From Escherichia coli (GTDB lineage Bacteria > Pseudomonadota > Gammaproteobacteria > Enterobacterales > Enterobacteriaceae): a stretch of DNA of 64,000 nt. Where the stretch lies: NCBI RefSeq assembly GCF_030384885.1, contig NZ_CP128615.1; one strand, written 5' to 3'. Below the pieces are notes generated by a model. That model ran no database searches. It was not told the DNA's origin and saw nothing but the letters and a program-made list of their open reading frames with translations. Position 1 is the first letter of the stretch. Every line of letters starts with the position of its first letter. A program made the position numbers and the translations under genes. Positions 7,986 to 61,764 of this stretch are shown here, piece after piece.

Positions 7986-8001
7986 GTTTCACCTCAGCGC
8001 C

Positions 8002-14342: not shown

Positions 14343-14357
14343 ATGATCTTGCGCCTC

Positions 14358-16121: not shown

Positions 16122-16137
16122 AGTTATCCGTTGCCTC

Positions 16138-19815: not shown

Positions 19816-19833
19816 TCGGGAGGCTCCCTGCTC

Positions 19834-20427: not shown

Positions 20428-21014
20428 TCCATTACCTCAATCAAATCTTCCCGGCCCAGACGAACTAACCAGTCTTTAACTTCTGGCATTAGGTAAACAG
20501 GTTGTATTTTCTTTGTCCTGCTATCACTCAGGTAGCCACTATCAACCAGTGCCTTAATTGCGTTGTTACCCATTTTTTTGACAGTTGAGTCAGAAAAACC
20601 GCCAAGCTCAGCATATGCCCGCACTCTCGTGTCATAAAACTCAGACCATGCATCAGCGGTTAAAGAGGGTTTATAGGTGCGACGAGCTTCGGCTAAGGTA
20701 AGTCGCATAAAATAAGCGACAACCGGAGAATGAATGAGTAATGACATCATCAGCATTTGGACATAGGCACGTTCACTCGCGGCTAAAAGATCAGTCATAA
20801 ACTCATCACCCAGGCCTTCAATACGCCAACGGATTGTTCTGGCATAACGAATAGCCGTCTGACCGGATTTTTTCTGAAGAACATTTTGCTCAACGATCAG
20901 CGACTTCCACTCATCTTCTGGAAGTTTTTTCAATAGCGATTCTGCGATTATTCTAGATTCAGTTATCAATAAACTGCCTCCGATAAGATCGCCTAAATAT
21001 TCTTTTATATTCAT
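20415..21014 (-). CDS. brxA: BREX protein BrxA (DUF1819)
   Basis: 199 aa; first structural gene of the BREX block. Confidence 0.8.
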   Translation of the reverse strand: MNIKEYLGDLIGGSLLITESRIIAESLLKKLPEDEWKSLIVEQNVLQKKSGQTAIRYARTIRWRIEGLGDEFMTDLLAASERAYVQMLMMSLLIHSPVVAYFMRLTLAEARRTYKPSLTADAWSEFYDTRVRAYAELGGFSDSTVKKMGNNAIKALVDSGYLSDSRTKKIQPVYLMPEVKDWLVRLGREDLIEVMECTI

Positions 21015-21023
21015 AAATTCATC

Positions 21024-24625: not shown

Positions 24626-25208
24626 TGACCTGCTCCCCGTTGATTAGTACACCCCGATGTTAGTAATGTCTTCATAAGCCACATGAGGACATCCCCATGA
24701 AGAAGCGTTTTTCCGACGAACAGATCATCAGTATTCTCCGCGAAGCCGAAGCTGGGGTACCCGCCCGTGAACTCTGCCGCAAGCATGCCATTTCCGATGC
24801 CACGTTTTACACCTGGCGTAAGAAGTATGGCGGTATGGAGGTGCCTGAAGTTAAGCGCCTGAAGTCGCTTGAGGAAGAGAACGCCAGACTCAAGAAGCTG
24901 CTTGCCGAAGCCATGCTGGATAAAGAGGCGCTTCAGGTGGCTCTTGGGCGAAAGTACTGACGACAGACCAGAAGCGGGAAGCCGTGATGCTGATGTGTGA
25001 TGCGACCGGTCTGTCGCAACGTCGTGCCTGCAGGCTTACAGGTTTGTCCCTGTCGACCTGCCGCTATGAGGCTCACCGTCCGGCTGCTGATGCGCATTTA
25101 TCAGGGCGCATCACTGAGCTGGCACTGGAGCGCAGGCGTTTTGGCTACCGTCGTATTTGGCAATTGCTGCGCCGTGAAGGGCTTCATGTTAATCATAAGC
25201 GCGTGTAG
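24626..25208 (+). mobile_element. IS3-family (IS407-group-like) element, 3'-truncated within orfB
   Basis: Begins TGACCTGCTCCCCGTTGATTAGTACACCCCGATG; orfA 24697-24960 and first 74 codons of orfB (24984-25208) only. Confidence 0.6.
24697..24960 (+). CDS. IS3-family (IS407-group) transposase OrfA
   Basis: MKKRFSDEQIISILREAEAGVPARELCRKHAISDATFYTWRKKYGG... Confidence 0.8.
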   Translation: MKKRFSDEQIISILREAEAGVPARELCRKHAISDATFYTWRKKYGGMEVPEVKRLKSLEEENARLKKLLAEAMLDKEALQVALGRKY

Positions 25209-28627: not shown

Positions 28628-28665
28628 GGGGAGCCCGCAGAATTCGGAAAAAATCGTACGCTAAG
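28628..28665. repeat. Tn1721 internal 38-bp inverted repeat (end of the Tn1722 core)
   Basis: GGGGAGCCCGCAGAATTCGGAAAAAATCGTACGCTAAG; tnpA stop lies inside it. Confidence 0.8.
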
Positions 28666-31627
28666 GTTTTCCGGGCATCCGTAAGGGCCGAAACTTCCCG
28701 TCTTCCAGTCTGCGGCTCTGCCGCCAGACGTAATCGCCGGTTAGGTTGATGTGCTCCCAGCCCAGCGGCGACAGGAATTGCAGCAGCTCGCCGTCCACCG
28801 GCTTGCCGGCCTCGACCAACCCCTGGGTGGCGCGTTCCAGGTACACCGTGTTCCACAGCACGATAGCCGCCGTCACCAGGTTGAGGCCGCTGGCCCGGTA
28901 GCGCTGCTGCTCGAAGCTCCGATCCCTGATTTCCCCAAGGCGGTTGAAGAACACCGCCCTGGCCAGCGAGTTGCGCGCCTCACCTTTGTTCAGGCCGGCA
29001 TGCACGCGGCGGCGCAGTTCAACACTTTGCAGCCAGTCCAGGATGAACAGCGTGCGCTCGATCCGGCCCAGCTCGCGCAGGGCCACGGCCAGTCCGTTCT
29101 GGCGCGGGTAGCTGCCGAGCTTGCGCAGCATCAGCGAGGCGGTGACGGTGCCCTGCTTGATCGAGCTGGCCAGGCGCAGGATGTCGTCCCAGTGGGCACG
29201 CACGTGCTTGATGTTCAGGGTGCCGCCGATCAGCGGGCGCAACGTCGGGTAGGCTTGCACGCCCTGCGGCACGTACAGCTTGGTTTCGCCGAGGTCGCGG
29301 ATGCGCGGCGCGAAGCGGAAGCCTAGCAGGTGCATCAGGGCAAAGACGTGATCGGTGAAGCCGGCCGTGTCGGTGTAGTGCTCCTCGATCCGCAGGTCGG
29401 ACTCGTGGTACAGCAGGCCGTCGAGCACATAGGTGGAATCGCGGACGCCGACATTCACCACGCGGGTGCTGAACGGCGCGTACTGGTCGGAGATATGGGT
29501 ATAGAACAGCCGTCCCGGCTCGCTACCGTACTTCGGGTTGACGTGCCCGGTGCTCTCGCCCCGGCCACCCGCGCGGAAGCGCTGGCCATCGGAGGATGAG
29601 GTCGTGCCGTCGCCCCAGTGGGCGGCAAAGGCGTGGCGATACTGGTGGTTGACCAGCTCGGCCAAGGCCGCCGAATAGGTTTCGTCGCGGATGTGCCAGG
29701 CTTGCAGCCAGGACAGCTTGGCGTAGGTCAGGCCGGGGCTCGACTCGGCCATCTTGGTCAGCCCGAGGTTGATCGCATCACCGAGGATTGCGGACAGCAG
29801 CAACGTCCTGTCTTTGGCCTCGGCCCCGTCCTTCAAGTGGGTGAAGTGGCGGCTGAAGCCCGTCCAGTCGTCCACGTCCATCAGCAGTTCGGTGATCTTG
29901 ATGCGCGGCAGTAACTGGCTGGTTTGGTCGATCAGCGCCTGCGCCCGATCCGGCACCGCCGCATCCAGCGGGGTGATTTTCAGCCCTGACTCGGTGAGGA
30001 TGGCATCGGGCAGCTCGTTGTCCTTGGCCAGGCGGGTGACGGTGGCCAACTGCTCGTCCAGCAGCTGCAAACGCTCTTCCAGGTACTGGTCGCTGTTCGG
30101 GTTGATCGCCAGGGGCAGGGCCTGCTCGCGCTTGAGTGCGGCGAACTTCTCGGCCGGCAGCAGGTAGTCGTCGAAGTCGCGGAACTGCCGCGAGCCCTTG
30201 ACCCAGATGTCGCCGGAGCGCAGGGCGTTCTTCAGCTCGGACAGGGCGCAGATTTCGTAGAATTTCCGGTCGAGGCCTTCCGGGGTGATCACCAGCGGCT
30301 TCCAGCGCGGCTTGATGAAGGCCGTGGGTGCATCGGCCGGCACCTTGCGCAGGTTGTCGGCGTTCATCTCACGCAGGGTCTGCACGGCTGCCAGCACGCC
30401 TTGCGCGGCCGGCGCGGCGCGCAGTTCCAGCACCTCCAGCAAGGCCGGCGTGTAACGGCGCAGGGTGGCGAAGTTCTCGCCGACCAGGTGCAGGTGGTCG
30501 AAGCCTTCCGGCCGGGCCAGCAGCTCGGCCTCGCTGACGCTCTCGGTGAACTCGTCCCAGGGAATCACCGCCTCGATGGCGGCATAGGGGTCGCTGCCGC
30601 TTTCCTTCGCTTCCAGCAGCGCCTGGCCGATCCTGGAGTACAGGCGCACCTTGTCGTTGATCGCCTTGCCCTGCTTCTGGAACTGCTGCTGATGCTTGTG
30701 CTTCGCGCCGCTGAACAGCTTGACCAGGATGCGGTCATGCAGATCGACCAGCTCATCGATCACGGTCGCGGTGCTCTCCAGCACCACGGCGGCCAGGGTC
30801 GCGTAGCGGCGCTGCGGCTCGAACTTACCGAGGTCTTTGGGCGTCATCTGCCCACCCTCGCGGGCCAGCTTGAGCAGGCGGTTCTGGTGGATGTGCCGGC
30901 CCAGGCCTTCGGGCAAGTCCACCAACTGAAATGTCTTCAGCCGCTCGATGTGTTCCAGCATGTGCCGAGAGTTGGGTTTCAGCGGTGCCTGGCGCAGCCA
31001 GGTCAACCAGGTGATGCTGCTGCCGGCCTTGAGCTTCAACAGCTCGTCCAGCTTGGCCCGATGCGAGTCCGTGAGTGGTTCGACCAGGGCGCGGTAGACC
31101 CGCCGATTGGCTCGCGCAATGGCTTCCGAGCAGGCCCGGTCAATCACGCTCAGCGCCGGCAGGATGCGTCGTTTCTGCCGTAGGCTCTCCAGGGCCTGAC
31201 CGGCCAGCAGCAAGCCTTTGTCGGTCTGCTGGGCCAGCTCGGTTAGCTCGCGCACCAGGGCGCGGAAGTCGGACAGGCCGAACGGGGCCAGTTGCAGGTA
31301 GGTGCGCAGTTCCTGGGCATGCTCGCGACGGGTCACGTCGCGCTCGCCGTACTTTGCCCAGCTCGCCGGCTCGGCCTGGACTTGCTTCGCCACCCACAGG
31401 ATGACCGGCTCGGGCAGCTCGCTGTCGGTTCCCAGCGCGTAACCGGGGTAGCGCAGCAGGCAGAGCTGCACGGCGAAGCCGAGGCGGTTGGCGTCGCCGC
31501 GTCGCTGGCGGATCAGCGACAGGTCGGAGTCGTTGAAGGTGTAGTAGCGGATCAGGTCATCCTGGCTTTCCGGCAGCGCAAGCAGGGTGTCCCGCTCCGT
31601 GGCCGAGAGGATCAAGCGACGCGGCAT
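28661..31627 (-). CDS. tnpA: Tn21-subgroup Tn3-family transposase TnpA (Tn1721)
   Basis: 988 aa [31 protein letters not shown]... ending ...LTGDYVWRQ... Confidence 0.9.
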
Positions 31628-32499: not shown

Positions 32500-34077
32500 A
32501 TGCGCCAGAATTTACCAGTGACGGGTCGAAACTTAGAACTCCCAAAAGATGCCAATATTCTTTCGACTACCTCCCCTCAAAGCCATATCACGTACGTTAA
32601 TCCTGACTTCATTAAAATCAGTGGTTTCACTGAGGAAGAACTATTAGGCCAGCCTCACAACATCGTAAGACACCCAGATATGCCGCCTGCTGCATTTGAG
32701 CATATGTGGAGTACATTAAAATCTGGCCGCTCATGGATGGGGCTAGTAAAAAATCGCTGTAAAAATGGCGACCACTATTGGGTAAGTGCTTATGTAACGC
32801 CAATAGCTAAGAATGGTTCGATTGTTGAATACCAGTCTGTAAGGACCAAGCCTGAACCTGAGCAGGTTTTGGCTGCGGAAAAATTATATGCTCAATTGAG
32901 AAGCGGGAAGGCCGCGAGGCCGAAATTGGCTGCTAGCTTTTCCGTGAAAATACTCTTGCTCATATGGGGTAGTATTATATCAAGCGCAATGGCTGCCGGC
33001 ATGCTTACTGATACATCAATAAGCAGCTTATTGTTAGCCACTTTAATGTCAGGAAGCTTAAGCTCTGTTAGTGTTTTGGCTATTCTCTCTCCTCTTGGAA
33101 GACTGGTTGAAAGAGCCAGGAATATTTCCAATAACCCATTAAGTCAATCCCTCTACACTGGGCGCACCGATGAGTTTGGCCAAATAGAGTTTGCTTTACG
33201 AATGATGCAAGCTGAAACAGGCGCCATAGTAGGTCGCATAGGTGATGCATCAAATCGGCTTAGCGAACACACCCGAGGCCTACTAAAGGATATTGAGTCA
33301 AGCAATGTACTTACAGTTGAGCAGCAGGCAGAGACAGATCAAATAGCAACGGCAGTAAACCAAATGGTGGCAAGCATTCAAGAGGTTGCGAGCAATGCAC
33401 AGCATGCTGCAGATGCGGCCGGAAGAGCAGACACTGAGACGGCATCTGGCCAGCGTCTGGTAGCCCACACAAGCCAGTCAATCACTGCCCTTGAAGGTGA
33501 AATTAGGCAAGCCACTCAGGTTATTCATGAGCTTGAAGGTCAAAGTAACGAGATATCAAAAGTTCTTGACGTTATACGAGGGATCGCCGAGCAAACGAAT
33601 TTGTTGGCACTCAACGCAGCAATTGAGGCCGCGCGTGCTGGTGAGCAGGGGCGTGGTTTTGCTGTTGTCGCCGATGAGGTTCGCAGTCTTGCTGCTCGCA
33701 CACAGCAATCGACAACGGATATTCAAAGCATGATCAGCGCTCTACAAGAGCGAGCGCAATCCGCTGTTACAGTCATGGAGCAAAGTAGTCGGCAAGCGCA
33801 CACGAGTGTAGCTCACGCAGAGGAAGCAGCTACAGCTCTTGATGGAATTGGCCAACGCGTTAACGAAATTACCGACATGAACGCGCAAATAGCGACTGCG
33901 GTCGAGCAGCAGGGAGCAGTAAGTGAAGACATAAACCGCAGTATTATCAATATACGCGATGCTGCTGATACCAATGTACAGACCGGGCAGAATAATTTGC
34001 AAAGTGCGAAATCTGTCGCTCAGTTAACTAGCGCTCTGAGCGAACTGGCAAAACAGTTTTGGGAAAAACGAGGATAA
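32500..34077 (+). CDS. Methyl-accepting chemotaxis-like protein (Tn1721 orfI / mcp)
   Basis: 525 aa with PAS-like N-terminus, two hydrophobic segments and a C-terminal MCP signalling domain ([30 protein letters not shown]). Confidence 0.8.
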
Positions 34078-35496: not shown

Positions 35497-38382
35497 CTAA
35501 GGCTTTGGCCAGCGATATTCTCCGGTGAGATTGATGTGTTCCCATCCGAGCGGCGAAACATGGGCCAAGAGATCGGGCGATAGCAGCTTTCCATCGCGTT
35601 TCTGGTTTGCAACGACCTCGCCGAGCTTCATGGTGTTCCAGAAGATGATGATGGCGGCGAGCAGATTCATGCCGGCGATGCGGTAATGCTGGCCTTCGGC
35701 GGAACGGTCGCGGATTTCACCGCGGCGGTGGAAGCTGATTGCCCGCTTCAGCGCATGATGAGCTTCGCCTTTGTTGAGCCCGATCTGGGCACGCCGTTGG
35801 AGTTCGGCATCCAGAATCCAGTCGATCATGAACAGGGTGCGCTCGACGCGACCGACTTCCCGCAGGGCTGTCGCGAGCTCGTTCTGCCGCGGATAGGAGG
35901 CGAGTTTCCGCAGAATCTGGCTTGGCGCGACGGTCCCGGCAGCAATGGTGGCGGCGATGCGCAGGATGTCGGGCCAATTGCGCTCGATCATGGCTTGGTT
36001 GACCTTTCCGCCGATCAACGCTCGCAGGTGCGCCGGGGCGGCCGACGGATTGAACGCGTAGAGCCGTTTGGATGGCAGGTCGCGGATGCGCGGAGCGAAC
36101 CGGTAGCCGAGAATGGCACATGCGGCAAAGACGTGATCGGTGAAGCCGCCCGTGTCGGTGAACTGCTCGCGGATATGGCGTCCAGCATCGTTCATCAGCA
36201 GGCCATCGAGGATGTAAGGCGCTTCGCTTGCCGTTGCAGGAATCACCTGGGTTGCGAACGGCGCATATTGGTCGGAGACGTGGCTATAGGCTTTCAGGCC
36301 CGGGGTATTGCCATATTTCGCGTTGACCAGGTTCATGGCCTCACCTTGCTCTGTAGCGACGAAGAACTGTCCGTCGCTCGAAGCCGACGTGCCCATGCCC
36401 CAGAACCGGGCCATGGGTAACGCTGCCTGTGCCTCGACCACCATGGCCAGCGCCCGGTCATAGGCTTCGCCCTCGACATGCCACCGTCCAATGCGGATCA
36501 ATTCCCAGAAGGTGTGGGTGTTTGTCGCATCCGCCATTTTGCGCAAGCCGAGGTTGATCCCTTCCGCCAAGATAACGTTCATTAGCCCGATCCGGTCAGC
36601 GCAGGGTGCTCCTGTGCGCAGATGGGTGAACGCTTCGGTGAAGCCGGTCGCCGCATCCACCTCCAGCAGGAGATCGGTGATGCGCGTGGGCGGGATCTGC
36701 TTGTAGAGATCGAGCACCAGATCTTCGGCGCCTGTCGGCGCGGCGGCTTCGAGTTTCTCGATATGCAGAACGCCGTTTTCAATCGACCCGCCCGGGATCG
36801 TGCCTGCGCGAGCGGCACGGCCAAGCTCGCGCAACCGCATGTCGAGGCGAGCTTGCCGGTCTGCCAGCCATTCCTCCGGCCGCAATGGCACAGCGAGACG
36901 ACCGCCTTCCGCGATGGATTGTGCCGGAACGAGTGCGTGTTTCAGATCGCCATAGCGCCGGGACCTAGTAAGCCAGACATCTCCGGAGCGGAACGCATCG
37001 CGCAGATGGAACAGCACCGCGATCTCCCATAGGCGAGCGTCGCCAGCCCTCTGGGCCCGAAGGTGGCGATGCCATTTCGAGCTGGGCCGCAAGAAGCTGG
37101 TCATCGCGGCATCGTTCAAACCGGTACGAAGGGCCGTCACCGCTTCCAGAAGCGGCAGTGCAACGGGCGCAGCTCGCAGATCGAGCAGGCGCAACATGCG
37201 TGGAGCGTATCGGCGGAAGCGGTGATAACCGTCGAGCACATGATTGAGCGGATCGTCGGCCATGGTGGCGGTCAGCCTGGTTGCCATTGCAACAAGGGTT
37301 TTTAAGCCGTCCCACCCTGACCCACTCGCGATGACATCGCCCAGCGGCTGGCCATCATCCTGTGCATCGACCAGGGCGCCCCCGATCTCGGCGAAGGATT
37401 TCAGGGTGTCACGCACCACCCCCGCTTCGTCTGCGACCTTTGCATGGCAAATACGCTCCGAAGCACGGTAGAGACGGCCGACGATCCGGTCGTGGGTTTC
37501 GACCACTGCGTCGGCCAACATCGCCTGCCATTCCGAGACGCAAACAGCCAAGATCGCAAGCCGCCTGTCCTCCGGGAGATCGCGCATGCCGTCGGCATAA
37601 TACCGTTCACCCTGCCTGCGCAGACGAGTCACCCGATGGGCAGGAACGCCGGCAAGCAGATCCTCGGGGAGATCGATGCGTTGCAGATATTCGAGCCGGT
37701 CGAGCAGCCGGTTGGCCGACGAAGAGTTCGAGCCAGGCTCGAACTGGCGCAGCCACACAAAACGGGTCACCCGATCATCAGCCGTCTCCTCGAGCAATGC
37801 CAGCAACTGTTCTCGGATCGACATAGGCAGCCGACTGGCGATCCTCGTCTCGATGCGTCGCTCGGCATCGACGAGAGCCGCGGCACAAAGCCGCTCGATC
37901 GTGGATGTCGCGGGAAGGACAGTGCGGGTGCGTCGGCACTCGGCTACGAAGCGACGGGCGATATCCTCGTTCGACACCGCCATCTCGGCTTCTCGGAACA
38001 ACCATTCCTTCAGCTCGCTCGCACCACGTCCGGAGAAGGTGCGGAAGCCGTAGAGCCCCCGTAACTCGGCAAGATGCTCGTGCCGTGTTTCCTCGCGGGC
38101 AGCATAGTCTACGAGATCGTCGGCACCCAGGCCAAGCTGCGCTCCGATAAATTCGATGACCTCTGCAGGGATCAGTTCGCCTGGAGCCAGCACCCGGCCG
38201 GGATAGCGCAGGACACACAATTGCAGGGCGAAGCCGAACCTGTTGTGAGCGCGCCGACGCAGCCTGATATGCCCAAGGTCTTCATCACTCAGCGTATAGT
38301 GCTTGAGCAAATCCGTCTGTGAAGTCGGCAAGCGCAACAGCGCGTCTTTCTGCCGATCGGTTAGAGTGACGCGACGCGGCAT
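35497..38382 (-). CDS. tnpA: Tn3-family transposase TnpA (Tn5393)
   Basis: 961 aa MPRRVTLTDRQKDALLRLPTSQTDLLKHYTLSDEDLG... Confidence 0.9.
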   Translation of the reverse strand: MPRRVTLTDRQKDALLRLPTSQTDLLKHYTLSDEDLGHIRLRRRAHNRFGFALQLCVLRYPGRVLAPGELIPAEVIEFIGAQLGLGADDLVDYAAREETRHEHLAELRGLYGFRTFSGRGASELKEWLFREAEMAVSNEDIARRFVAECRRTRTVLPATSTIERLCAAALVDAERRIETRIASRLPMSIREQLLALLEETADDRVTRFVWLRQFEPGSNSSSANRLLDRLEYLQRIDLPEDLLAGVPAHRVTRLRRQGERYYADGMRDLPEDRRLAILAVCVSEWQAMLADAVVETHDRIVGRLYRASERICHAKVADEAGVVRDTLKSFAEIGGALVDAQDDGQPLGDVIASGSGWDGLKTLVAMATRLTATMADDPLNHVLDGYHRFRRYAPRMLRLLDLRAAPVALPLLEAVTALRTGLNDAAMTSFLRPSSKWHRHLRAQRAGDARLWEIAVLFHLRDAFRSGDVWLTRSRRYGDLKHALVPAQSIAEGGRLAVPLRPEEWLADRQARLDMRLRELGRAARAGTIPGGSIENGVLHIEKLEAAAPTGAEDLVLDLYKQIPPTRITDLLLEVDAATGFTEAFTHLRTGAPCADRIGLMNVILAEGINLGLRKMADATNTHTFWELIRIGRWHVEGEAYDRALAMVVEAQAALPMARFWGMGTSASSDGQFFVATEQGEAMNLVNAKYGNTPGLKAYSHVSDQYAPFATQVIPATASEAPYILDGLLMNDAGRHIREQFTDTGGFTDHVFAACAILGYRFAPRIRDLPSKRLYAFNPSAAPAHLRALIGGKVNQAMIERNWPDILRIAATIAAGTVAPSQILRKLASYPRQNELATALREVGRVERTLFMIDWILDAELQRRAQIGLNKGEAHHALKRAISFHRRGEIRDRSAEGQHYRIAGMNLLAAIIIFWNTMKLGEVVANQKRDGKLLSPDLLAHVSPLGWEHINLTGEYRWPKP

Positions 38383-45181: not shown

Positions 45182-45673
45182 GTCTGTGTTGTAAAATGGC
45201 GCCGAAAGCCCGGCGTAGCCGGTTGCCGGGCTATAAATTCTGCCACCCTACCCCCTGCCCTGATTAGCCTTAACTCGCGAACAGCAATGAAGAAGTCAAA
45301 GTAATCCCTTTTAACCCCGGTGAGCGGGCTTTACGGCGTTTACGACGTAAAGGGCGTGATTTCCGGGGCCTAAGCGGCGGCAGCTTGCTGCTGACGCTTA
45401 GGGGGATGTTCATCAACTATTTCAGCGACACCAGGGAACTTAACACGGTAGCTGCAAAGCCCTAATCCCGCTCACCGCCACGCAGCTGCCGTACGTCCCC
45501 CACGGGGGTGCGCAGTGCTGCGCGCGGGAACGGCGGCCCGTCTGCGGGACGCGGCGCCGTACTGCGCGTTAGCGGCCGCACGCGGCCGGTTACGGGGGAC
45601 ACTCCGCCATACGACCAGCGACCCGCTGAGCTGCACAATCCACAGATAACACAAGCTACATACATGTCGATAT

Positions 45674-46245
45674 GGGAATCGGCCCACCTTGCCGGGCGCC
45701 GGTGCCGTGTGGAAATCCGCCCACCTTGCCGCGCGCCGGTGCCGTGTGGGAATCCGCCCACCTTGCCGCGCGCCGGTGCCGTGTGGGAATCCGCCCACCT
45801 TGCCGGGCGCCGGTGCTGTGTGGAAATCCGCCCACCTTACCGGGCGCCGGTGCTGTGTGGAAATCCGCCCATCTTGCCGGGCGCCGGTGCCGTGTGGGAA
45901 TCCGCCCACCTTACCGGGCGCCGGTGCCGTGTGGGAATCCGCCCACCTTACCGGGCGCCGGTGCCGTGTGGGAATCCGCCCACCTTACCGGGCGCCGGTG
46001 CTGTGTGGAAATCCGCCCACCTTGCCGCGCGCCGGTGCCGTGTGGGAATCCGCCCACCTTGCCGCGCGCCGGTGCCGTGTGGGAATCCGCCCACCTTGCC
46101 GGGCGCCGGTGCTGTGTGGAAATCCGCCCACCTTACCGGGCGCCGGTGCTGTGTGGAAATCCGCCCATCTTGCCGGGCGCCGGTGCCGTGTGGGAATCCG
46201 CCCACCTTACCGGGCGCCGGTGCTGTGTGGAAATCCGCCCATCTT
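45674..46245. repeat. Tandem array of about 15.5 copies of a 37-bp repeat (GAATCCGCCCACCTTGCCGCGCGCCGGTGCCGTGTGG with point variants)
   Basis: Contiguous head-to-tail repeats without spacers; downstream of a truncated repA paralog, i.e. in the position of an incC/incA-type iteron array. Confidence 0.85.
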
Positions 46246-46595: not shown

Positions 46596-46610
46596 GGTAA
46601 TGACTCCAAC

Positions 46611-47114
46611 TTACTGATAGTGTTTTATGTTCAGATAATGCCCGATGACTTTGTCATGCAGCGCCACCGATTTTGAGAACGACAGTGACTTCCTGCCCAG
46701 CCTTGCCAGATGCTGCCTCAGATTCTGGTTATGCCGCTCAATTCGCTGCGTATATCGCTTGCTGATAACGTGCAGTTCTCCCTTCAGGCGGGATTCATAA
46801 AGCGGCCAGCCATCCGTCATCCATACCACGACCTCAAAGGCCGACAGCAGGCCCGGAAGACGCTCCAGCGTGGCCAGAGTACGCTCACCAAAGACGCGTG
46901 CCACCACCGTCCTGCACATCCTGCCATAGGCGTAAAATAACCAGCGCTGACGTGATTTAGCCCCGACGTAGCCCCACTGTTCGTCCATTTCCGCGCAGAC
47001 AATGACGTCACTGCCCGGTTGTATGCGTGAGGTTACCGACTGCGGTCTGAGTTTTTTAAGTGACGTAAAATCGTGTTGAGGCCAACGCCCATAATGCGGG
47101 CGGTTGCCCGGCAT
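46611..47114 (-). CDS. insB: IS1 InsB
   Basis: 167 aa, 95 percent-range similarity to the other insB in the window. Confidence 0.85.
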
Positions 47115-47308
47115 CCAACGCCATTCATGGCCATATCAATGATTTTCTGGTGCGTACCGGGCTGAGAGGCGGTGTAAGTGAACTGTAGCTGCCATGTTTT
47201 ACGGCAGTGAGAGCAGAGATAGCGCTGATGTCCGGCAGTACTTTTACCGTTACGCACCACGCCTTCAGTAGCTGAGCAGGAGGGACAACTGATGGAGATG
47301 GAAGCCAC
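47033..47308 (-). CDS. insA: IS1 InsA
   Basis: [30 protein letters not shown]... Confidence 0.85.
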
Positions 47309-47379
47309 TGGAGCACCTCAAAGACACCATCGTACACTAAATCAGTAAGTTGGCACCATTATCCGGCAGGCGATCTGGA

Positions 47380-49300
47380 TTATCGTCACGCTGTTAAATA
47401 TGTCGCGGTAGGGATACCCGTTACCGGATACCCCCCGCACAGATCCCGGCGTGCGCGATTTACGCACCGGGCTCCTGCCTCGGGTGTCTGGCGGTGAACC
47501 GCTCCACAGGCCATGGATGAAGAACCCGAACCCTTGGTAGCCATGCGGCTGCCAGTTTGTTTGCTTTCGTCCAGGTCGTATCATCCTTCTGGCTCCTGCG
47601 CCTGAGCGCCCGGCGCCAGAGGTTTGTTACGTGTGTCCTGAACTTCTGCATGGTGGGGAAGTTGCCCGGTACCGAGTGATAGTTCAGGTATCCCTGAACC
47701 ACTCTCCTGAGCCATTTTCCCTGTTCGGGGATTGAGTAATGCCAGCGCCTTCGCAGACCGTCTTTGATGGCTTTCAGAGTTGCCGTCATCCGATCCCGGC
47801 GGGTCTTTCGTATCAGCATGAACCTGCCGTTGCGATCTTTCCCGCTGATGTGCGTGAACCCGAGGAAGTTGAACGTTTCTGGTTTGCCTTTTCCCCTGAT
47901 GGCACGGTTTTCGGCAGCGAAGCGGCCGAACTCCATCAGACGGGTTTTCTCCGGGTGAACCGTGAGTCCGAACTCCCTCAGTCTGCGCTGCATGGCTATA
48001 CGGAAGCGCCGGGCATCGTATCGTTTGTCGAACCCGATGACGATGTCATCGGCGTATCTGACCATTACCACATTGCCTGTGGCATAGCGACGTCGCCACT
48101 GATGCGCCCACAGATCGAAGACGTAGTGGAGGTATATGTTTGCCAGCAGCGGTGAGATGACCGCACCCTGTGGGGTGCCTTCCTCCGTTGCTCGCCATTG
48201 ACCCTCCTCCAACGTCCCGGCTGTGAGCCACTTACGTATGAGCCTGATTACGCTCCGGTCGCCGATCCGATGCTCTGTGAACCTGATCAGCCATTCGTGG
48301 CTCACCCTGTCGAAGAACTGACTGATGTCGGCATCCAGTACCCAGTTTACGTTAGTGCGTACCAGCCCTGTGGCCAGTGCGTCCAGTGCATCGTGCTGGC
48401 TTCGCCCGGGTCTGAACCCGTATGAGAACCCCATAAAGTCGTTTTCATAGACTGCGTTCAGGATTTTCACCAGCGCATACTGGACGATCTTGTCCTCCAG
48501 CGAGGCGATGCCGAGCGGGCGTTGTTTTCCATCCGCTTTTGGGATGTAGTGACGCCTGCCGGGCTGCGCCCTGTAGCTGCCCTAATGTAGCCTCCGGTGC
48601 AGATCTGTTATGTTGTTCTTCATGTTTCCGGCGTAGTCCATCCACCTGATGCCATCCACTCCGGCGGCCGCTTTCCTGCTCAGGGAGAGGAATGCGGCTT
48701 CCAGTGCTTCGACTGTCAGCAGGTGGAACAATGCTGTAAACCGTTCTTTCTTCCGCTGCTTCGCAGCTTCCCGCACGCGTGACAGCCTCTGTGACATGCT
48801 TTCCCGGCTCTGTGTCCGGCGCATGTGTGGCTGTTCCGCGTTCCCCTTGGCCCCGCTCCTTCGCTCCACTGACTCCGCTCCTTTCGGGTTGTTCGCCTGC
48901 TTCGCCGCTACTATGAGCGAGTCCGACTTCTCCTCTCCGTACATCACCGGCTATGACTCCTCGTCTTCCCGGTGCGGGCCGTCTCCGACACTGGCAGATG
49001 GTCAGAGGGGAGATCTCCCGGTTCCCGCGTAGAGATCGTATTGACATGCCAGGGTCTCAGACCCCGCCGGGTCCATGTGGCACTCGCAGTATCGCACCCT
49101 ATGATGTTGCCTTCCGTTAACAGTACAACGTCGGCACCCGGTAATTTAATATACATTTCGTGGCTCAATGGCTGGCCTGTCAACACCCCTGTCAACGCTT
49201 CGCCCCATACCTCGCGGTATGCAACGCATGACTCGGGGACCTTGTGGATTGCTGGTCCTTCAATGGTCGGGGACTTTCACCCCTTGATCTCTACCGGTCT
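47380..49300 (-). mobile_element. Group II intron (bacterial, ORF in domain IV), boundaries approximate
   Basis: Encodes an intron-type reverse transcriptase/maturase; domain-V-like hairpin GAGCCCGGTGCGTAAATCGCGCACGCCGGG near 47458-47490 just 3' of the ORF; a GTGCG 5'-consensus-like motif is seen but is too close to the ORF to be the certain 5' end. Confidence 0.55.
47460..48947 (-). pseudogene. Group II intron reverse transcriptase/maturase, split by a frameshift near 48470-48600
   Basis: N-terminal ORF 48582-48947 (domain 0: ...AAAGVDGIRWMDYAGN...) and C-terminal ORF 47460-48470 (RT motifs incl. VRYADD and maturase X-domain VQGYLNYH) are in different frames. Confidence 0.7.
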
Positions 49301-49311
49301 CCCGGTGAACA

Positions 49312-49327
49312 CTGTATGTATAACCAG
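49312..49327 (+). promoter_or_regulatory. LexA (SOS) box upstream of the umuD-like gene
   Basis: CTGTATGTATAACCAG, one mismatch from CTGT-N8-ACAG, about 25 bp upstream of the RBS. Confidence 0.5.
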
Positions 49328-49352
49328 TAAAATTAGAGTGTCAGGAGGAAAG

Positions 49353-49784
49353 ATGAAACTACAACTTTTCAGCACCGGGAAAGAACTCCCGCCACAGGCC
49401 CATCCATTGTTTGCCGATCTGGCCAGCTGCGGTTTTCCCAGCCCTGCTGCTGACTATGTCGAGTCCGATCTGGATCTCCATGATTACTGCATACGGCATC
49501 CGAGCGCGACGTACTACCTGCGTGCCAGCGGAGACAGCATGGCCGACGGCAGTCTGTACAATGGCGATCTGCTGGTTGTGGACAGTGCTGAAAAGCCGCG
49601 GCACGGCGATATCGTTGTCGCCAGCATGCAGGGGGAGTTTACGGTGAAACGGCTTCTGCTGACGCCGCGACTGACGCTGCAGCCCATGAATGCCTCCTGG
49701 TCGCCGATTTATCCTGATCCCGACGAGCTGGATATCTTTGGCGTCGTCACGCATATCATCCACCGCCCGAGGGAGATGTACTGA
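49353..49784 (+). CDS. umuD: UmuD/MucA/ImpA-family SOS mutagenesis protein (S24 peptidase)
   Basis: ...[20 protein letters not shown]...[22 protein letters not shown]...[10 protein letters not shown]; the 270-aa track ORF is an upstream read-through. Confidence 0.85.
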
Positions 49785-51055
49785 TGTTTGCCCTGGCCGA
49801 TGTGAACAGCTTCTATGCCAGCTGTGAACGTGTTTTCCGCCCGGATTTGAAAGGAAAGCCGATAGTCGTCCTGAGCAACAACGACGGGAATGTAATCGCT
49901 CGCAGTGCCGAGGCGAAGCCCTGGATCAAAATGGAAACTCCGTGGTTTCAGATAAAAAACGAAAGATACCCGGAAAAAATATATGCGTTTTCAAGTAACT
50001 ATGAACTTTATGCCTCGATGTTGGCGCGCGTGATGAACAGCCTGGAGGAACTGGCCCCCAGAGTGGAACAGTATTCAATTGATGAGATGTTCCTCGATTT
50101 GACCGGCGTGGAGCACTGTATGGAGCTTGAGGACTTCGGCCGGCAGCTGCGTCAGCACGTGTATGACTGTACCCACCTGACCATTGGCGTGGGCGCCGGA
50201 CCAACGAAGACCCTCGCAAAATCAGCCCAGTGGGCCTCAAAAGAGTGGAAACAGTTTCGTGGCGTACTTGCTCTGACCAGGGGAAATCCGCAGAGAACGC
50301 GGAAACTGCTTTCACTGCAGCCGGTTGAAGAAATCTGGGGGGTGGGTAACCGTATTGCACGCAAGCTGAATGTACTGGGCATTAAGACCGCGCTCGATCT
50401 CGCCCTGACGAACCCGGCCTTCATCCGCAAAAATTTTTCTGTGGTCCTTGAGCGAACGGTACGGGAACTGAACGGGGAAAGCTGCCTTTCGCTTGAGGAA
50501 GCCCCTCCGACGAAACAGCAAATTGTCTGCAGCCGCAGTTTTGGCGTGAAGATCACGGAGTACGAGTCACTCCGTCAGGCTATCTGTCAGCACGCAGAGC
50601 GGGCCTCTGAAAAACTGCGTAAAGAGCACCAGTATTGCCGGCATATTTCCGTTTTCATCAAAACGTCTCCGTTCGCCATTAAAGAGCCTTACTACGGCAA
50701 CGTGGCTACGGAAAAACTTCTTACACCCACTCAGGACACCAGGGACATCATTGCAGCCGCTACAACGGCTCTGGAGCGTATCTGGAGGGATGGGCACCGG
50801 TATGCCAAAGCCGGAGTTATGCTGAATGACTTCACCGGCTCCGGCGTTTCGCAGCTGCAGCTGTTCGACGAACGCCCGCCACGCCCTTACAGTGCTGAGC
50901 TGATGAAGGTTCTGGACGGGATCAACAACTCAGGGCTGGGTAAAGTATGGTTTGCGGGGCGGGGTATTGCCCCGGAATGGCAGATGAAACGGGAGATGCT
51001 TTCTCCTGCTTATACGACACGATGGTCAGATATTCCTTCAGCGAAACTGGCGTAA
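49784..51055 (+). CDS. umuC: UmuC/MucB/ImpB-family Y-family translesion DNA polymerase
   Basis: 423 aa [41 protein letters not shown]...; start overlaps umuD-like stop. Confidence 0.9.
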
Positions 51056-51059
51056 AACT

Positions 51060-51140
51060 TTGGCGATTTCACCTTGAAATTCTCAGCCTAAACTGCCTAA
51101 TTACAATAAGTTAGATGTGAAATCGCCATGGCGAAATTAT
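51060..51140. promoter_or_regulatory. P1-type partition site parS
   Basis: Heptamer ATTTCAC/GTGAAAT and hexamer TCGCCA/TGGCGA boxes flanking an AT-rich (IHF-like) core, immediately downstream of parB. Confidence 0.6.
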
Positions 51141-52114
51141 TGACTCAAATTTCTGTCAAGGACCTCGTTGATAGCCTTGTCCAGTTCATCCTGAATCACT
51201 TTTGACATACGGCTAAACTCATAAGTCAGCGTACGCCCTTTCACACGCTTACGCGCGAACTTGTCCTTTTCTTCAAAAGACCAGAGTGGGGAAACCACTG
51301 ACTTTTCCTTGGGAGATGGATCTATCAATGCCTGAGATGCCTGAGAAATCAGCTTCAGTATACTGGCTTTCTGTTCGTCTTCTGGTCGCTCGCCTTCACT
51401 CAAAATTGCATCGAGCTGAGCTGATACAGACTGAATGAGTTCTTCAGGCGTTAATCCCTTTTCACTGAGTTTTTCATTAACTTCTAAAAGAAGTTTATAG
51501 TCACTAAACGATAGCTCCGACTGAACCGGGAACAGAGAAATCAAGTCTTGCGGTACGGCCGCCGCCTGCAGCGCCCTGGTAACTTTAGCTTGAGATAACC
51601 CCTCCAGTTCAGCAATTTCCTTTTGATTAAATCCGGACTCTTTAAGAGCGATCAATCTCAGGCCAATCTCCCGAAGATTATGTTCTTTAGCTGTCTGGAT
51701 ATCTTTAGCCAGTTGGCGAGCTTCATCAGCTGATAAATGCTCTTCGGTAACCATTACATCAAGGCCTGTACGGACAAAAATTGCTGAGGCTCGCCGTCTT
51801 GAACCATCCAGTATCTCAATCCTTTCACTTTGCTTAATACCAATACAGGGAAAGAACTGCTGAAACTTAATCGTCTGGATAATGGATTTCAGGGATTCCC
51901 TGGTCAGTGCAAGTTGATCTCTTCCGTTGTTTTCCTGGTTTACGAAGGTCTTACTTTCAACTTCAGATGCAGGCACCCGAACAAACCTGAACGTTACCTT
52001 CCTGCCGGTTTTTAAGGTAAATACCTGGCTTCTACCGGTGTCCGTCATTTCCGCAATTGACGCCTGGGTATTTAACTGTCTGCCGATGGTTTTTCTTTTC
52101 TCATTCGACATCAC
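51137..52114 (-). CDS. parB: P1-type partition protein ParB
   Basis: 325 aa; ...EILDGSRRRAS...GLSQAKVTRALQAA...RFARKRVKGR... strongly resembles P1 ParB. Confidence 0.9.
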   Translation of the reverse strand: MMSNEKRKTIGRQLNTQASIAEMTDTGRSQVFTLKTGRKVTFRFVRVPASEVESKTFVNQENNGRDQLALTRESLKSIIQTIKFQQFFPCIGIKQSERIEILDGSRRRASAIFVRTGLDVMVTEEHLSADEARQLAKDIQTAKEHNLREIGLRLIALKESGFNQKEIAELEGLSQAKVTRALQAAAVPQDLISLFPVQSELSFSDYKLLLEVNEKLSEKGLTPEELIQSVSAQLDAILSEGERPEDEQKASILKLISQASQALIDPSPKEKSVVSPLWSFEEKDKFARKRVKGRTLTYEFSRMSKVIQDELDKAINEVLDRNLSQ

Positions 52115-53316
52115 ATACCTCCGTTAGTACGAATGAACTCGATGCGATCAAAGACTGCCTTCGCAAAGTCTTCCGCTGCTGATTTTGCGCTTTTTAGTGC
52201 CTCTGTACTTCCATCATAGGTTGCTGGATTTGCTGAAATAACTGTGTCAAAAGTCTCCCCACAACGTTCGAAACCATCCAGTCTTGGCAGAACCATGTCT
52301 AGCATATCGGCACCGAAAACCTCTTTGGCCTGACTATGGCAAATTTTGTGATCAGACTTGTTCAGGATCTTGGACATGAAGCCGACATTACCGATGAGAT
52401 TGCAGGTGTGCCCATCCATTTCGATGGAATCTATGAGGGCAGGGAGGCTGGCCACAAACTTCAGGGAAGAATGAAAATCAACCGTCGCCGGTGGAAGAGG
52501 GGTCAACATCAGGTCTGCCGCCCCAATGCAGTTTTTCAGGAACGCATCAAGGTGAGGACCACTATCAAGGAAAATAAAGTCGTAGTCATGCTGGAGCTTG
52601 TCGATAATGTTCTCTTTAAGCACCGCATGAATATTTTTCCCTGGCAGATGTTCTTCACACAATCCCTTCCAGCCTTCAGCAAGGAATGCATCGTCAATGG
52701 AAGCGGGGATTACATCAACACCAGGGATAATAGACGGTACTATAAAATCGGAAAGTAATTCTTCACGAGACACGTTCTGGAGCATGGCCTGAGCAGCCGT
52801 ATTTTCAACCAAGCCCACTGAATTCTCATGGCTCAGGAACATTGTCAGAGATGCCTGCGGATCGAAATCGATGGCCAGAATACGCAGGTCTTCGAACAGA
52901 AGCTGAGGATGAGCTCGAAAAGCATGTGATAATGAAGCGGTAGAAACTGTCTTGGAACCACCACCTTTAAGATTACATACAAAAATCGTAAAGGCTTTAT
53001 CGAAGCGATCCCTGTACTTCGGTACTTTACGATGGTTATACAGATCGATGACATTCTGAATCGTCATCGCGTATTTCATCGTATTACCAGAAGGTTTCTT
53101 TTTAAAAATGTAGCCACCGGCTTCCATTTCGGACACAGCATACTCAACACTGCCTTTACTGAGCTTAGGCAGCTTATACAGAGCGGCTTTGCTGTATTCC
53201 TGATAGAACTCGGTAAGCTTCAATTCCTCTTTTTGCTGTCGGATACTTTCGCTCAAAGATGTCAGAAGCTTACCTGCACGTGTAGCGACTTTCCGTAACT
53301 GCTCAATATTGTCCAT
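52111..53316 (-). CDS. parA: P1-type partition ATPase ParA (type Ia)
   Basis: 401 aa; Walker A-containing NLKGGGSKTVSTASLSHA and N-terminal DNA-binding extension as in P1 ParA. Confidence 0.9.
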   Translation of the reverse strand: MDNIEQLRKVATRAGKLLTSLSESIRQQKEELKLTEFYQEYSKAALYKLPKLSKGSVEYAVSEMEAGGYIFKKKPSGNTMKYAMTIQNVIDLYNHRKVPKYRDRFDKAFTIFVCNLKGGGSKTVSTASLSHAFRAHPQLLFEDLRILAIDFDPQASLTMFLSHENSVGLVENTAAQAMLQNVSREELLSDFIVPSIIPGVDVIPASIDDAFLAEGWKGLCEEHLPGKNIHAVLKENIIDKLQHDYDFIFLDSGPHLDAFLKNCIGAADLMLTPLPPATVDFHSSLKFVASLPALIDSIEMDGHTCNLIGNVGFMSKILNKSDHKICHSQAKEVFGADMLDMVLPRLDGFERCGETFDTVISANPATYDGSTEALKSAKSAAEDFAKAVFDRIEFIRTNGGM

Positions 53317-53707: not shown

Positions 53708-54125
53708 CTGTGGGAAACAGGTCAACTTTAATGGACGCTCCGGACTATGGGAAACAGGTCAACTTCGCGGACGGCCCGGACTATGGGAAACAGGTCAACT
53801 TCACGGGCGGCCGGGAGTGTGGGGAACAGGTCAACTTCGCGGACGGCCCGGATTATGGGAAACAGGTCAACTTCGCGGGCGGCCGGGACTGTGGGAAACA
53901 GGTCAACTTTGCAGACGGCCCGGACTGTGGGAAACAGGTCAACTTCGCGGGCGGCCGGGAGTGTGGGGAACAGGTCAACTTCGCGGACGGCCCGGACTAA
54001 GGGAAACAGGTCAGCTTCTCGGACGGCCCGGACTATGGGAAACAGGTCAACTTCTCGGACGGTCGGGAGTGTGGGAAACAGGTCAAGTTAGGCAAGCACT
54101 ATGGGAAACACAGCAAGTTCAGTAT
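53708..54125. repeat. Array of about 11 direct 36-bp repeats (TGGGAAACAGGTCAACTT core); iteron/copy-control locus downstream of repA
   Basis: Regular 36-bp period read directly; located between repA stop and parA start. Confidence 0.85.
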
Positions 54126-54176: not shown

Positions 54177-55043
54177 CTATTGTTTTTTATCAAGAAAATT
54201 AAACAGCAAGCGACCATCTTCTTCAGTGGTATATGTTACCTTTAATGGCGTCTTCTCATTAATTTTCTTCAGAGCAGGTTCCAGGAAGGTACGCTTCATT
54301 TCAGCAATATTGTTTTTCTGCGAGGCAGGGAGCATAAACCTTTCACATAACCAGTCATGTGTGGTGATCCAGACACCAGTGCTCCGGAACTGACACAGGC
54401 TTTCATAAAGCCGGATGACACGAACACTATTAAGCTGGCCACAGTCATAGAGAGAATAGGTAGTGAACTGGGAGGTTAAGCCGACCAGGAATGGCATGAC
54501 CTTGTAGTTAAATTCAATCTGCCAGGAACCCCGGCCTCGCTTCATTCCTGCTTCAGCCAGCCACGGACGTTTAACTTCTTCAAACTCACCTTCTTTTGGA
54601 TAAAAGGTAACCGTTGATTCGCCCAGAGCATTTACCCCAGCCTTCACATCACGACTGGCGACAGACGTAGCGACATTGAAGTATTTGACGTAATCGGAAA
54701 CGCTGATTTTGAAGAGCGGCAATACGTCAGAGTCATCTTCCTGGCTGTCATTAAAATAGGCCTGCATGAGGCATAACCACAGCACACGTTTTGCCTGAAG
54801 AGGCAGGTAATATGCAGCTTCGGTCAATTCGTTAGATTGCTTTATACTGGCGCGTTTTTTAAACGTTTTAGTAGCTGGCAAGAGTGCTTGAGTATCCATT
54901 TCAATGCCTATGGGTAAATTTTTACCCACCCATAATGACAGTGAAAACAGAAATTGCAAGCTATCGCGATACTTATCCACCGGAAAAATCTGCACTTTAT
55001 CCACAAGTGGATAATTGAGAACTGAACTTGACCTCTTTCCCAT
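54177..55043 (-). CDS. repA: Rep_3-family replication initiator RepA (RepE of F-like)
   Basis: 288 aa; ...IKQSNELTEAAYYLPLQAKRVLWLCL...VIRLYESLCQFR... parallels F RepE. Confidence 0.85.
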   Translation of the reverse strand: MGKRSSSVLNYPLVDKVQIFPVDKYRDSLQFLFSLSLWVGKNLPIGIEMDTQALLPATKTFKKRASIKQSNELTEAAYYLPLQAKRVLWLCLMQAYFNDSQEDDSDVLPLFKISVSDYVKYFNVATSVASRDVKAGVNALGESTVTFYPKEGEFEEVKRPWLAEAGMKRGRGSWQIEFNYKVMPFLVGLTSQFTTYSLYDCGQLNSVRVIRLYESLCQFRSTGVWITTHDWLCERFMLPASQKNNIAEMKRTFLEPALKKINEKTPLKVTYTTEEDGRLLFNFLDKKQ

Positions 55044-60642: not shown

Positions 60643-61764
60643 CCTTTTTTGAACAGCCTTACCTATTGCTATAGAGGGGAACTCCTACGTTATACGCCGC
60701 TTTCAGGGGATTCGACCTTAATGAGACAACTCAAATATGATCGACAACTTAAACGCGATAGTTGCTGATAAAATCAATCCATTACGCGTTTCAATTGATT
60801 AAATAATGCACTTAATGTACAAAAATTCCCGATCTCAAAACTGAACCCTAAAGATACCAGGCATCTCCCCCAGGAAGCGCCCTCATGCGTTTTCCTGTTC
60901 CGCCCCTGCCACCTACCTTCTGTTTCATACTTGTTGTATTATTGTTTTTGTTTTCAATCCCCAAGGAGACGTCGCTATATGACTGTGCGGGAGACAGAGG
61001 AAAACATTGAACAAATCTTCCCTGAGCTTTCGAACTTAATTGATATTATTAATAAATGGCTTTCCCATGGAAACATTGATCCTGAACTGGCACACTTCAT
61101 CATTTATCTTCTTGATTACCTAACCACCACACACAAAAGCATATAAAAATTTTCCTTGCACATCCATTTTTTTGCGAATATTATTATTCCTGCTGAATAT
61201 GATTCAATATCGCACGCTACTCATCCATCCCAGGATAATGAGTACATAGGTTGAAGTTTCAACACCCCCATTACGGGGGTGTTTTTTTTACCAATAAACA
61301 CAAATCACACCATCGCCATACTCTGTTTGCCAGACATCGATTGGTAAATATGCGTAACTCGCTATAATACAAAAAGAAAAATCAGAACCAGAAACCAGTT
61401 TCCAGATAAAAAACACCCTCCCGAAGGAGGGGACAGACACATTCATATTTCCCAAAACAGGAATTTTTATTTTTATGACGCATTAATGAAGTTACTTCAT
61501 CTCCAGTAGATTAACTTCATTTAAAGTGGCGATCAATCATATTTATTACGACTCTAAACTATTACAACAACCACAATAAGATATCACCTCAAATATAAAA
61601 GATAACTCTTACAAAAACGTTCCGAAAACAAAAAATACAGATAAACACCAATAAAAAACAGAAAACTCTTACACATTTAAAGATGGTAAAATAATATAGA
61701 ACTGTTAGTCTAATGGAGAAGGCGCATCTGATTCAGAGCAATCTATTGCGAAGAATCAGAGTAA

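Follow-up and report, generated by a model that had tools for sequence, protein, structure and literature searches.

Class C (IIC) group II introns insert downstream of terminator or attC stem-loops and recognise them through exon-binding sites (EBS) 1 and 3 only, with no EBS2. The group II intron Kl.pn.I5, also named S.ma.I1 or Se.ma.I1 (PMC3522654, PMC6764390), has its reference copy in the IncR prototype pK245; its consensus homing site was derived from three copies with no mention of LexA, and no free site was found in the K. pneumoniae MGH genome (PMC3522654). Kl.pn.I5 has been described as active in a hospital outbreak. The backbone genes of IncR plasmids are vagCD, resD, repB, parAB, umuCD and retA (PMC7707992), and the IncR literature treats retA as a 'maintenance' gene, without a link to the umuDC operator. 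Here we analysed a 64,000-nt stretch of Escherichia coli DNA (contig NZ_CP128615.1, assembly GCF_030384885.1; the whole stretch is called the window) in which a copy of this intron abuts the LexA operator of a umuDC-type operon. LexA operators as the homing sites of this intron lineage are strongly supported by comparative data, and the explanation as a whole, a DNA polymerase V (Pol V) operon beside a fossil copy from a LexA-operator-homing intron lineage, is in our judgement very probable.

The locus is made up as follows.

46596-47363: IS1, complete, 768 bp, insA/insB on the minus strand, annotated as IS1X3 in an identical plasmid
47364-47401: remnant of the original DNA upstream of the LexA box, 38 bp, equal to the intron 3′ exon and now 1.9 kb from umuD
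47402-49310, minus strand: group II intron Kl.pn.I5/S.ma.I1, degenerate, 1909 nt, oriented away from umuD
49310-49329, plus strand: 20-nt LexA operator CACTGTATGTATAACCAGTA, position 1 (49310) being the complement of intron nucleotide G1
49312-49327, plus strand: LexA core box CTGTATGTATAACCAG, CTG-N10-CAG
49343-49348, plus strand: Shine-Dalgarno sequence AGGAGG, as read from the sequence, 4 nt before the umuD ATG
49353-49784, plus strand: umuD-like gene (ATG at 49353, stop at 49782-49784), 143 aa, S24 autoprotease
49784-51055, plus strand: umuC-like gene, 423 aa, Y-family polymerase

The intron matched Rfam RF02005 (group II intron D1-D4; 186.6 bits, 49052-49277, minus strand), and its boundaries were set against copies from other contexts (betS gene, IncFIB(K) plasmid, Burkholderia plasmid) and against the intron-free allele of pKP27-NDM4. 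On the intron strand, the 5′ junction reads ...TTACTGGTTATACATACAGT followed by GTTCACC..., the 3′ junction reads ...CTACCGCGAC followed by ATATTTAACAGCG, and in the empty allele TACTGGTTATGCATACAGT runs directly into ATATTTAACAGCG. Set against the empty allele, the junctions therefore place the entry point between positions 19 and 20 of the 20-nt operator. The 16-nt core was left on the umuD side and the former upstream DNA was displaced by 1.9 kb; the remnant at 47364-47401 matches the empty-site allele ...GCGATCTGGATTATCGTCACGCTGTTAAATAT joined to ACTGTATG. The operator before insertion would have read TACTGTATG(C/T)ATAACCAGTA, as reconstructed from the empty-site allele in pKP27-NDM4 and from comparison of the umuD, mucA and samA operators. 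A preliminary description, made from the letters of the window alone, had placed the operon next to a group II intron; the adjacency held, and the relation is tighter than nearness, the intron being contiguous with the LexA box (intron nucleotide 1 = 49310). IS1 cuts the old upstream DNA 38 bp beyond the intron 3′ end. No 9-bp target duplication was found at IS1 (46596-47363), so the DNA formerly upstream of umuDC may have been deleted or rearranged through IS1.

The lineage was surveyed by an exact scan for its 5′ end in one genome per species, which returned 9 loci (in Pluralibacter, Paraburkholderia, Burkholderia and two contigs labelled Prevotella and Arthrobacter); a LexA box stood directly before the intron at 9/9 of these, with box centres that were all different. 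A metagenome scan added 78 further intron loci. Across genomes, metagenomes and plasmids, CTG-N10-CAGT lay immediately 5′ of the intron in 64 of 74 distinct 40-nt flanks and, after dereplication, in 47 of 57, with 33 different 16-nt cores; the exceptions were mostly near-boxes. The flank logo from -19 to -1 reads TACTGTATAT(A/T)(T/A/C)A(T/A)ACAGT, with low information content beyond -20, and the first nucleotide of the 3′ exon was A in 12 of the 14 complete copies of the scan set. Logo and 3′ exon together therefore give a full operator, TACTGT-N8-ACAGT/A (slash, insertion point). The minus-strand site of the window, CTGGTTATACATACAGT followed by the intron G and with the 3′ exon ATATTT, agrees with this pattern.

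Beside the intron stand SOS genes, namely umuD-type genes at 16 loci, the mucA-like gene of R471, imuA-imuB-dnaE2, genes of two DinI families, a dinB-like Y-family polymerase and a cloacin gene, as well as an integrase. Among complete E. coli genomes the intron was present in 214 of 5426, at 45 chromosomal places. In Ecol_AZ146 and Z503 it lies exactly in the chromosomal umuDC operator (...GACTACTGTATATAAAAACAGT, intron, ATAACTTCAGGCAGATTATTATG), and the K-12 umuDC box is the precise empty allele of this insertion. Copies in sense orientation lie between operator and gene (E. coli chromosomal umuDC, cloacin), and antisense copies adjoin the box on its upstream side (the window, IncFIB(K), R471, Burkholderia imuA).

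Most plasmid copies sit in umuD contexts of related Klebsiella plasmids, as they would if a single early insertion before a umuD-like gene had spread with the operon and the contact between intron and box were a historical accident. Such an accident is hardly credible beside 33 core boxes, 57 dereplicated flanks, unrelated genes, hosts in Enterobacterales and Burkholderia, both orientations, and precise pairs of empty and occupied alleles at two different loci. A single ancestral insertion was rejected on the diversity of flanks and boxes and on the empty and occupied alleles of E. coli umuDC.

LexA-operator homing would account for the position of the window copy: the intron adjoins the umuDC operon because LexA operators are the probable homing sites of its lineage. 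The intron would reverse-splice directly after ...ACAGT, between operator positions 19 and 20. Because the LexA box is palindromic, entry would be possible on either strand, and the 16-nt core operator would stay intact in both insertion orientations. In the window, an antisense insertion would have displaced the DNA upstream of the operator by 1.9 kb, and IS1 would have cut that DNA later.

Three sets of copies were recorded beside the survey. Burkholderia cenocepacia NCTC13227 carries at least 3 related introns (L012, L013 and L014), each at a different LexA box and one of them upstream of imuA, a pattern that fits continuing spread from one SOS operator to another within a single host. On an 11.97-kb ColE1-type Klebsiella plasmid (L097/L009), a sense intron separates the start codon of the cloacin (bacteriocin) gene from the promoter and LexA box ahead of it; this copy should be transcribed from the SOS-controlled promoter-like site, and splicing must then restore the toxin mRNA. 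Two pairs of metagenome contigs (L066 vs L087 and L053 vs L027) have identical 5′ exons (30-nt flank plus LexA box) and different 3′ exons, for example a chromosomal-type umuD vs an unknown 79-aa open reading frame (ORF); either intron copies at SOS promoters have recombined, or the assemblies are chimeric across the repeat.

Candidate exon-binding sites were located in the window copy.

49149-49155, minus strand: proposed EBS2, UGUAUAU, intron nt 156-162, pairing with box positions -13 to -7, ATATA(T/C)A
49119-49125, minus strand: proposed EBS1, ACUGUU, with the preceding U, intron nt 187-192, pairing with (A)ACAGT, positions -6 to -1

In a minimum free energy (MFE) fold, EBS1 appears as the hairpin loop UACUGU(U) (intron nt 186-192) with a neighbouring U complementary to the +1 A, and the EBS2 candidate is unpaired. 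Pairing between EBS2 and its site averaged 6.0/7 over 25 intron/site combinations, a mean reached in 17 of 20000 permutations, and a G at EBS2 position 3 covaried with a pyrimidine at -9 (Fisher p=0.002), both statistics resting on sites that are not fully independent. EBS2 variants fit their own targets (UGUUUAU with ATAAATA, UGGAUAU with ATATTTA, UGGAUAC with TATCCA), as does the Burkholderia EBS1 variant ACUGUAU with its ATACAGT target. With this comparative support we infer that EBS1 would pair with the right arm of the box, EBS2 with its AT-rich centre and the adjacent U with the +1 A. Beside the partial dependence among sites, several points weigh against homing as set out here. The left arm TACTGT (-19 to -14) has no RNA partner in the pairing model, and it is absent at about 6 of 71 sites (L003, L025, L064, L067, L068 and L080). 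Flanks on the 3′ side were available for about 20 copies, because many metagenome contigs end inside the intron. The intron protein (495 aa, endonuclease-less) may read the left arm, or the arm may simply go with palindromic LexA boxes.

LexA boxes might instead be recognised as DNA hairpins, in the style of class C introns, and not by sequence-specific EBS2/EBS1 pairing. LexA boxes, being palindromes, can fold into short stem-loops when single-stranded; the intron, at 1.9 kb, is compact and encodes a protein without an endonuclease domain, as in IIC introns; and the left arm of the box is conserved yet has no RNA partner. This IIC-style mechanism is improbable and is disfavoured here, as the insertion point falls inside the right-arm region that pairs with EBS1 and not downstream of a hairpin, the possible stems have only 4-6 AT-rich pairs, the 7-nt EBS2 candidate both pairs and covaries with the box centre, and sites without the left arm are still used. 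Kl.pn.I5 has also been treated apart from class C introns (PMC3522654). The resemblance to class C introns lies in an endonuclease-less element that targets a recurrent, palindromic, non-coding regulatory motif and hence has many 'safe' sites per genome. The difference is that the motif here would be a sequence-defined repressor operator, with EBS2-like pairing and insertion at the motif edge. No terminator was found upstream of the site, and the covarying EBS2-like pairing likewise sets the window family apart from class C.

The window copy itself has decayed.

47460-48947, minus strand: intron reverse transcriptase (RT) ORF, interrupted by a C>T change at 48584 that creates a stop codon (48582-48584) after codon 121

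The intact intron protein has 495 aa, an RVT_1 domain and no endonuclease domain. The window intron is about 99.7% identical to active copies, with 6 lineage-specific changes in 1909 nt, and intron nt 3 and 5 are changed (49308 and 49306), turning the 5′ end from GUGCG to GUUCA. An ltrA annotation is missing from plasmid copies 100% identical to it and present in 99.8% identical copies. D1-D4 and the 3′ end are kept, and the GUUCA 5′ end and the RT stop are what a functional mobile group II intron would not carry; unlike active Kl.pn.I5 copies, the window intron is a dead copy, a fossil that belongs to the family by descent only. The mutated junction (GTTCA) was found in 553 plasmid records, and the unmutated GTGCG occurs in the same IncR context (L093). 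A 5′ truncation of the window intron, with 365 nt before the ORF, was considered and rejected: full-length copies elsewhere are also 1909 nt.

The near-consensus LexA box that had been proposed before umuD was borne out by the statistics of the window and by homologous operons. The consensus core CTGTATATATATACAG, with up to 3 mismatches allowed, had one match in 64 kb (this site, 13/16) at 0.12 expected, and at least 1 match appeared in 12 of 100 shuffles. The bare CTG-N10-CAG pattern was not significant in the window (18 matches vs 18.07 expected). Over 20 nt, the operator CACTGTATGTATAACCAGTA agrees with the consensus TACTGTATATATATACAGTA at 16/20 positions. The box lies 26 nt upstream of the umuD ATG, and its position is comparable in E. 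coli umuD, R46 mucA and pSLT samA. Expression of umuDC should thus be SOS-inducible through this operator, 26 nt before the start codon. Two considerations tell against such control: the 20-nt operator departs from the consensus at 4 positions, one of which the intron altered, and LexA binding, SOS induction, mutagenic activity and the transcription start are predictions made from sequence.

Both proteins of the operon appear to be functional. The reading frames of umuD and umuC share one base, in an ATGA at 49782-49786, the same 1-nt overlap as in E. coli K-12, which bears out the overlap of the two genes given in the preliminary description; its coordinates (49312-51055) run from the first base of the box to the umuC stop. 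Its identification of a umuDC-type translesion operon was likewise upheld by profile scores: the UmuD-like protein scored 88.9 bits against Pfam Peptidase_S24 and 144.4 bits against the NCBIfam Pol V autoproteolytic subunit (PRK10276; cut-off 110), and the UmuC-like protein scored 794.8 bits against NCBIfam UmuC (cut-off 431) and contains the domains IMS, IMS_C and DUF4113. Loss of catalytic residues, named beforehand as the observation that would overturn the claim, was looked for by comparison with solved UmuD and by alignments with UmuDC, SamAB, MucAB and an IncFIB(K) pair, and every functional residue was present. The UmuD-like protein keeps the Cys26-Gly27 cleavage site, Ser62 and Lys99 (E. 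coli C24-G25, S60 and K97), and the UmuC-like protein keeps D6, the steric-gate Y11, D100/E101 (E. coli D101/E102) and the clamp motif QLxLF, as QLQLF at 357-361; D6, Y11, D100, E101 and Q357-L-x-L-F361 are invariant in the alignment with UmuC, SamB and MucB. The operon would accordingly encode a RecA*-cleavable UmuD-like protein and a UmuC-like Y-family polymerase. The ratio of nonsynonymous to synonymous substitution (dN/dS) of umuC was 0.12 vs the sister allele in pKP27-NDM4, which indicates purifying selection on umuC. A dN/dS against the IncFIB(K) allele was discarded (dS 3.4, from a codon-by-codon comparison without alignment).

Promoter-like hexamers flank the operator.

49306-49311, plus strand: -35-like TGAACA, built from the mutated intron 5′ end (CGCACA in unmutated copies)
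49305-49310, plus strand: -35-like GTGAAC, in an alternative register
49328-49333, plus strand: putative -10-like TAAAAT, directly after the LexA box

A consensus scan gave TGAACA-16 nt-TAAAAT (49306-49333), in which the 16-nt LexA core is the whole spacer; the two substitutions at the intron end create this -35, the only promoter-like one ahead of umuD. In the 17-nt register, both substitutions help the -35 match, from 1/6 to 3/6 (xTGAxx). By our own estimate, which is not the output of a tool, the chance that 2 of the 6 lineage-specific changes fall within the first 5 of 1909 nt under uniform decay is about 1e-4. The dead intron end may have been co-opted as the -35 part of a LexA-controlled umuDC promoter, a tentative reading that we place somewhat short of an even chance. 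The promoter scan is a weak consensus tool; it found nothing in the intron-free allele (pKP27-NDM4); and in the 16-nt register only one substitution improves the -35 match (3/6 to 4/6). Each of these points speaks against co-option. As no promoter was found in the intron-free allele, no claim is made that the intron destroyed a known promoter. The same scan also found nothing in the IncR context with the unmutated intron (L093).

The main rival to co-option is neutral decay: the change from GUGCG to GUUCA may have been neutral, or selected only against splicing or mobility and not for a promoter. The copy was already dead through the RT stop, which favours decay, as do the single improving change in the 16-nt register and the weakness of the scan. 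On the other side stand the clustering of 2 of 6 lineage-specific changes in the first 5 nt, with its low estimated probability, the gain in -35 similarity from both changes in the 17-nt register, and the frequency of the mutated allele (553 records) while the unmutated allele persists in the same backbone. We regard neutral decay as evenly balanced between true and false.

It is also conceivable that umuDC is a transcriptionally orphaned passenger, its promoter removed by intron and IS1 and its intact ORFs hardly expressed, with no benefit to the plasmid. All sequence upstream of operator position 2 is intron, IS1 truncates the old upstream DNA, the unmutated intron allele shows no consensus promoter, and the IncR literature gives the genes only a vague 'stability' role (PMC7707992). 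An orphaned operon is nonetheless unlikely given the umuC dN/dS of 0.12 with all catalytic residues kept, identical proteins on at least 1000 contigs, and a promoter-like -35/-10 pair flanking the operator in the derived allele; the intron-free allele is also without a consensus promoter, so the scan is uninformative about silence.

The UmuC-like protein is 76% identical to SamB (pSLT), 79% to the IncFIB(K) UmuC, 64% to E. coli UmuC and 54% to MucB (R46), and the UmuD-like protein is 54% identical to E. coli UmuD, 53% to SamA and 49% to MucA. The prototype pairs compared were UmuDC, SamAB and MucAB, and the operon pair fits cleanly with none of the three. Generic names ("Y-family DNA polymerase") were all that a search of 5.8 billion proteins gave, which left the choice among MucAB, ImpAB and SamAB unsettled. 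Family assignment by alignment, proposed earlier for MucAB, ImpAB and SamAB, gives SamAB/UmuDC as the closest named family (SamB 76%), and MucAB falls away as the nearest relative (MucB 54%, MucA 49%). The operon is best described as a member of the SamAB/UmuDC group whose first gene is divergent and UmuD-like (Cys-Gly), and as apparently mosaic. Compared with pKP27-NDM4 (L005), umuD is near-identical (dS 0.015) and umuC diverged (dS 0.17) over window positions 49353-51055, a contrast that points to recombination within the operon; it is on the dS values together with SamB 76% vs SamA 53% that the operon is taken to be mosaic.

With E. coli umuDC the operon shares the two-gene layout, the ATGA overlap, the LexA box just upstream, the Cys-Gly site, the Ser/Lys dyad and, in UmuC, the catalytic D/D/E, the steric-gate Tyr11 and the QLxLF clamp motif; it differs in sequence (64% identity for UmuC, 54% for UmuD), in being plasmid-borne and in having its upstream promoter DNA replaced by the intron. 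SamAB of pSLT supplies the closest named polymerase homologue, SamB, and both loci have convergent parA-parB synteny, whereas SamA is 53% identical with an Ala-Gly cleavage site vs Cys-Gly in the window, and no intron lies at the pSLT box. MucAB (R46/pKM101) and the mucAB-like operon of R471 are likewise plasmid Pol V operons under a LexA box, and R471 carries the same intron in the same position and orientation relative to that box as the window; MucAB differs by its 54% (MucB) and 49% (MucA) identity and its MucA-type Ala-Gly cleavage site.

The plasmid location given in the preliminary description is confirmed by 100% identity to IncR-typed plasmids. The window DNA occurs at 100% identity in many plasmids, with at least 409 records at ≥99%; the best match is the IncR-typed E. 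coli plasmid NZ_CP024857.1, with the order repB-parA-parB-umuC-umuD-(intron)-IS1. The exact UmuD-like and UmuC-like proteins were each found on at least 1000 public contigs. Identity (100%) and gene order place the locus in the IncR backbone (repB-parAB-umuCD-retA, with resD and vagCD/vapBC), and relative to the described backbone of pK245 and pHN84KPC (vagCD-resD-repB-parAB-umuCD-retA) the window module shows no difference.

51137-52114, minus strand: parB, convergent with umuDC, 90% identical to pSLT ParB
52111-53316, minus strand: parA, convergent with umuDC, 98% identical to pSLT ParA
54177-55043, minus strand: IncR replication initiator gene repB

Operon, IncR backbone and intron (as an element) were each on record before this analysis, and the operon alone adds nothing new: multidrug-resistance plasmids of the IncR type carry it as their standard Pol V module. 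No experimental test of the IncR umuDC module was found in the literature searched. A search of full-text literature, which did not extend to older subscription papers, turned up no description of a group II intron homing to LexA or SOS boxes. Kulaeva et al. (Mutat Res, 1998) reportedly described a group II intron-like insertion in the mucAB promoter of R471a; the R471 sequence does carry the intron at its mucAB-like operon.

In unstressed cells, LexA bound to its operators could protect the target sites from the intron; DNA damage would lead to LexA cleavage and expose the sites, and sense copies in SOS 5′ untranslated regions (umuDC, cloacin, dinI-like) would be transcribed simultaneously. 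Insertions of the intron would also rewire error-prone polymerase operons. SOS-gated mobility and promoter co-option are put forward as hypotheses. The Burkholderia relatives of the intron are about 75% identical to it, and the full proposal, in which Kl.pn.I5/S.ma.I1 of Enterobacterales and these relatives use the LexA operator as homing site, spread perhaps under SOS gating and had an end co-opted as the umuDC -35, is rather doubtful when taken with all its parts.

An operator-homing retroelement would have dozens of conserved, mostly non-essential sites in each LexA-bearing proteobacterial genome or plasmid. The intron occupies promoters of stress-induced mutagenesis genes (umuDC, mucAB-like, imuABC and dinB-like), and so would connect retroelement mobility with the SOS response and with the control of mutagenic polymerases on resistance plasmids. 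Operator homing would explain why "retA" recurs in IncR and IncF(K) backbones. Intron copies would further amount to 1.9 kb of portable homology between SOS promoters, and programmable pairing of EBS and intron-binding site (IBS) with a transcription-factor site could be of practical use.

Several other features of the window were recorded. A tandem array at 53711-54086 (36 bp x 10.4 copies, 86% matches) adjoins repB and has the look of an iteron array, and another lies at 45673-46245 (37 bp x 15.5 copies, 93% matches). On the minus strand, 5910-21950 is taken up by a type 1 BREX phage-defence island, with brxL, pglZ, pglX, a GmrSD/DUF262-type gene (14358-16121), brxC, smaller genes and a WYL-domain regulator (21024-21950); the island is annotated in identical plasmids too. 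It is separated from the IncR backbone by a transposon-rich accessory region, in which Tn3-family transposase genes (28661-31627 and 35497-38382, minus strand) flank a PAS-HAMP-MCP chemoreceptor-like gene (32500-34077, plus strand). Rfam matches above the gathering score were an IS1222 ribosomal frameshift element (24927-25044, 152 bits) and the UptR small RNA (61192-61283, 123 bits).

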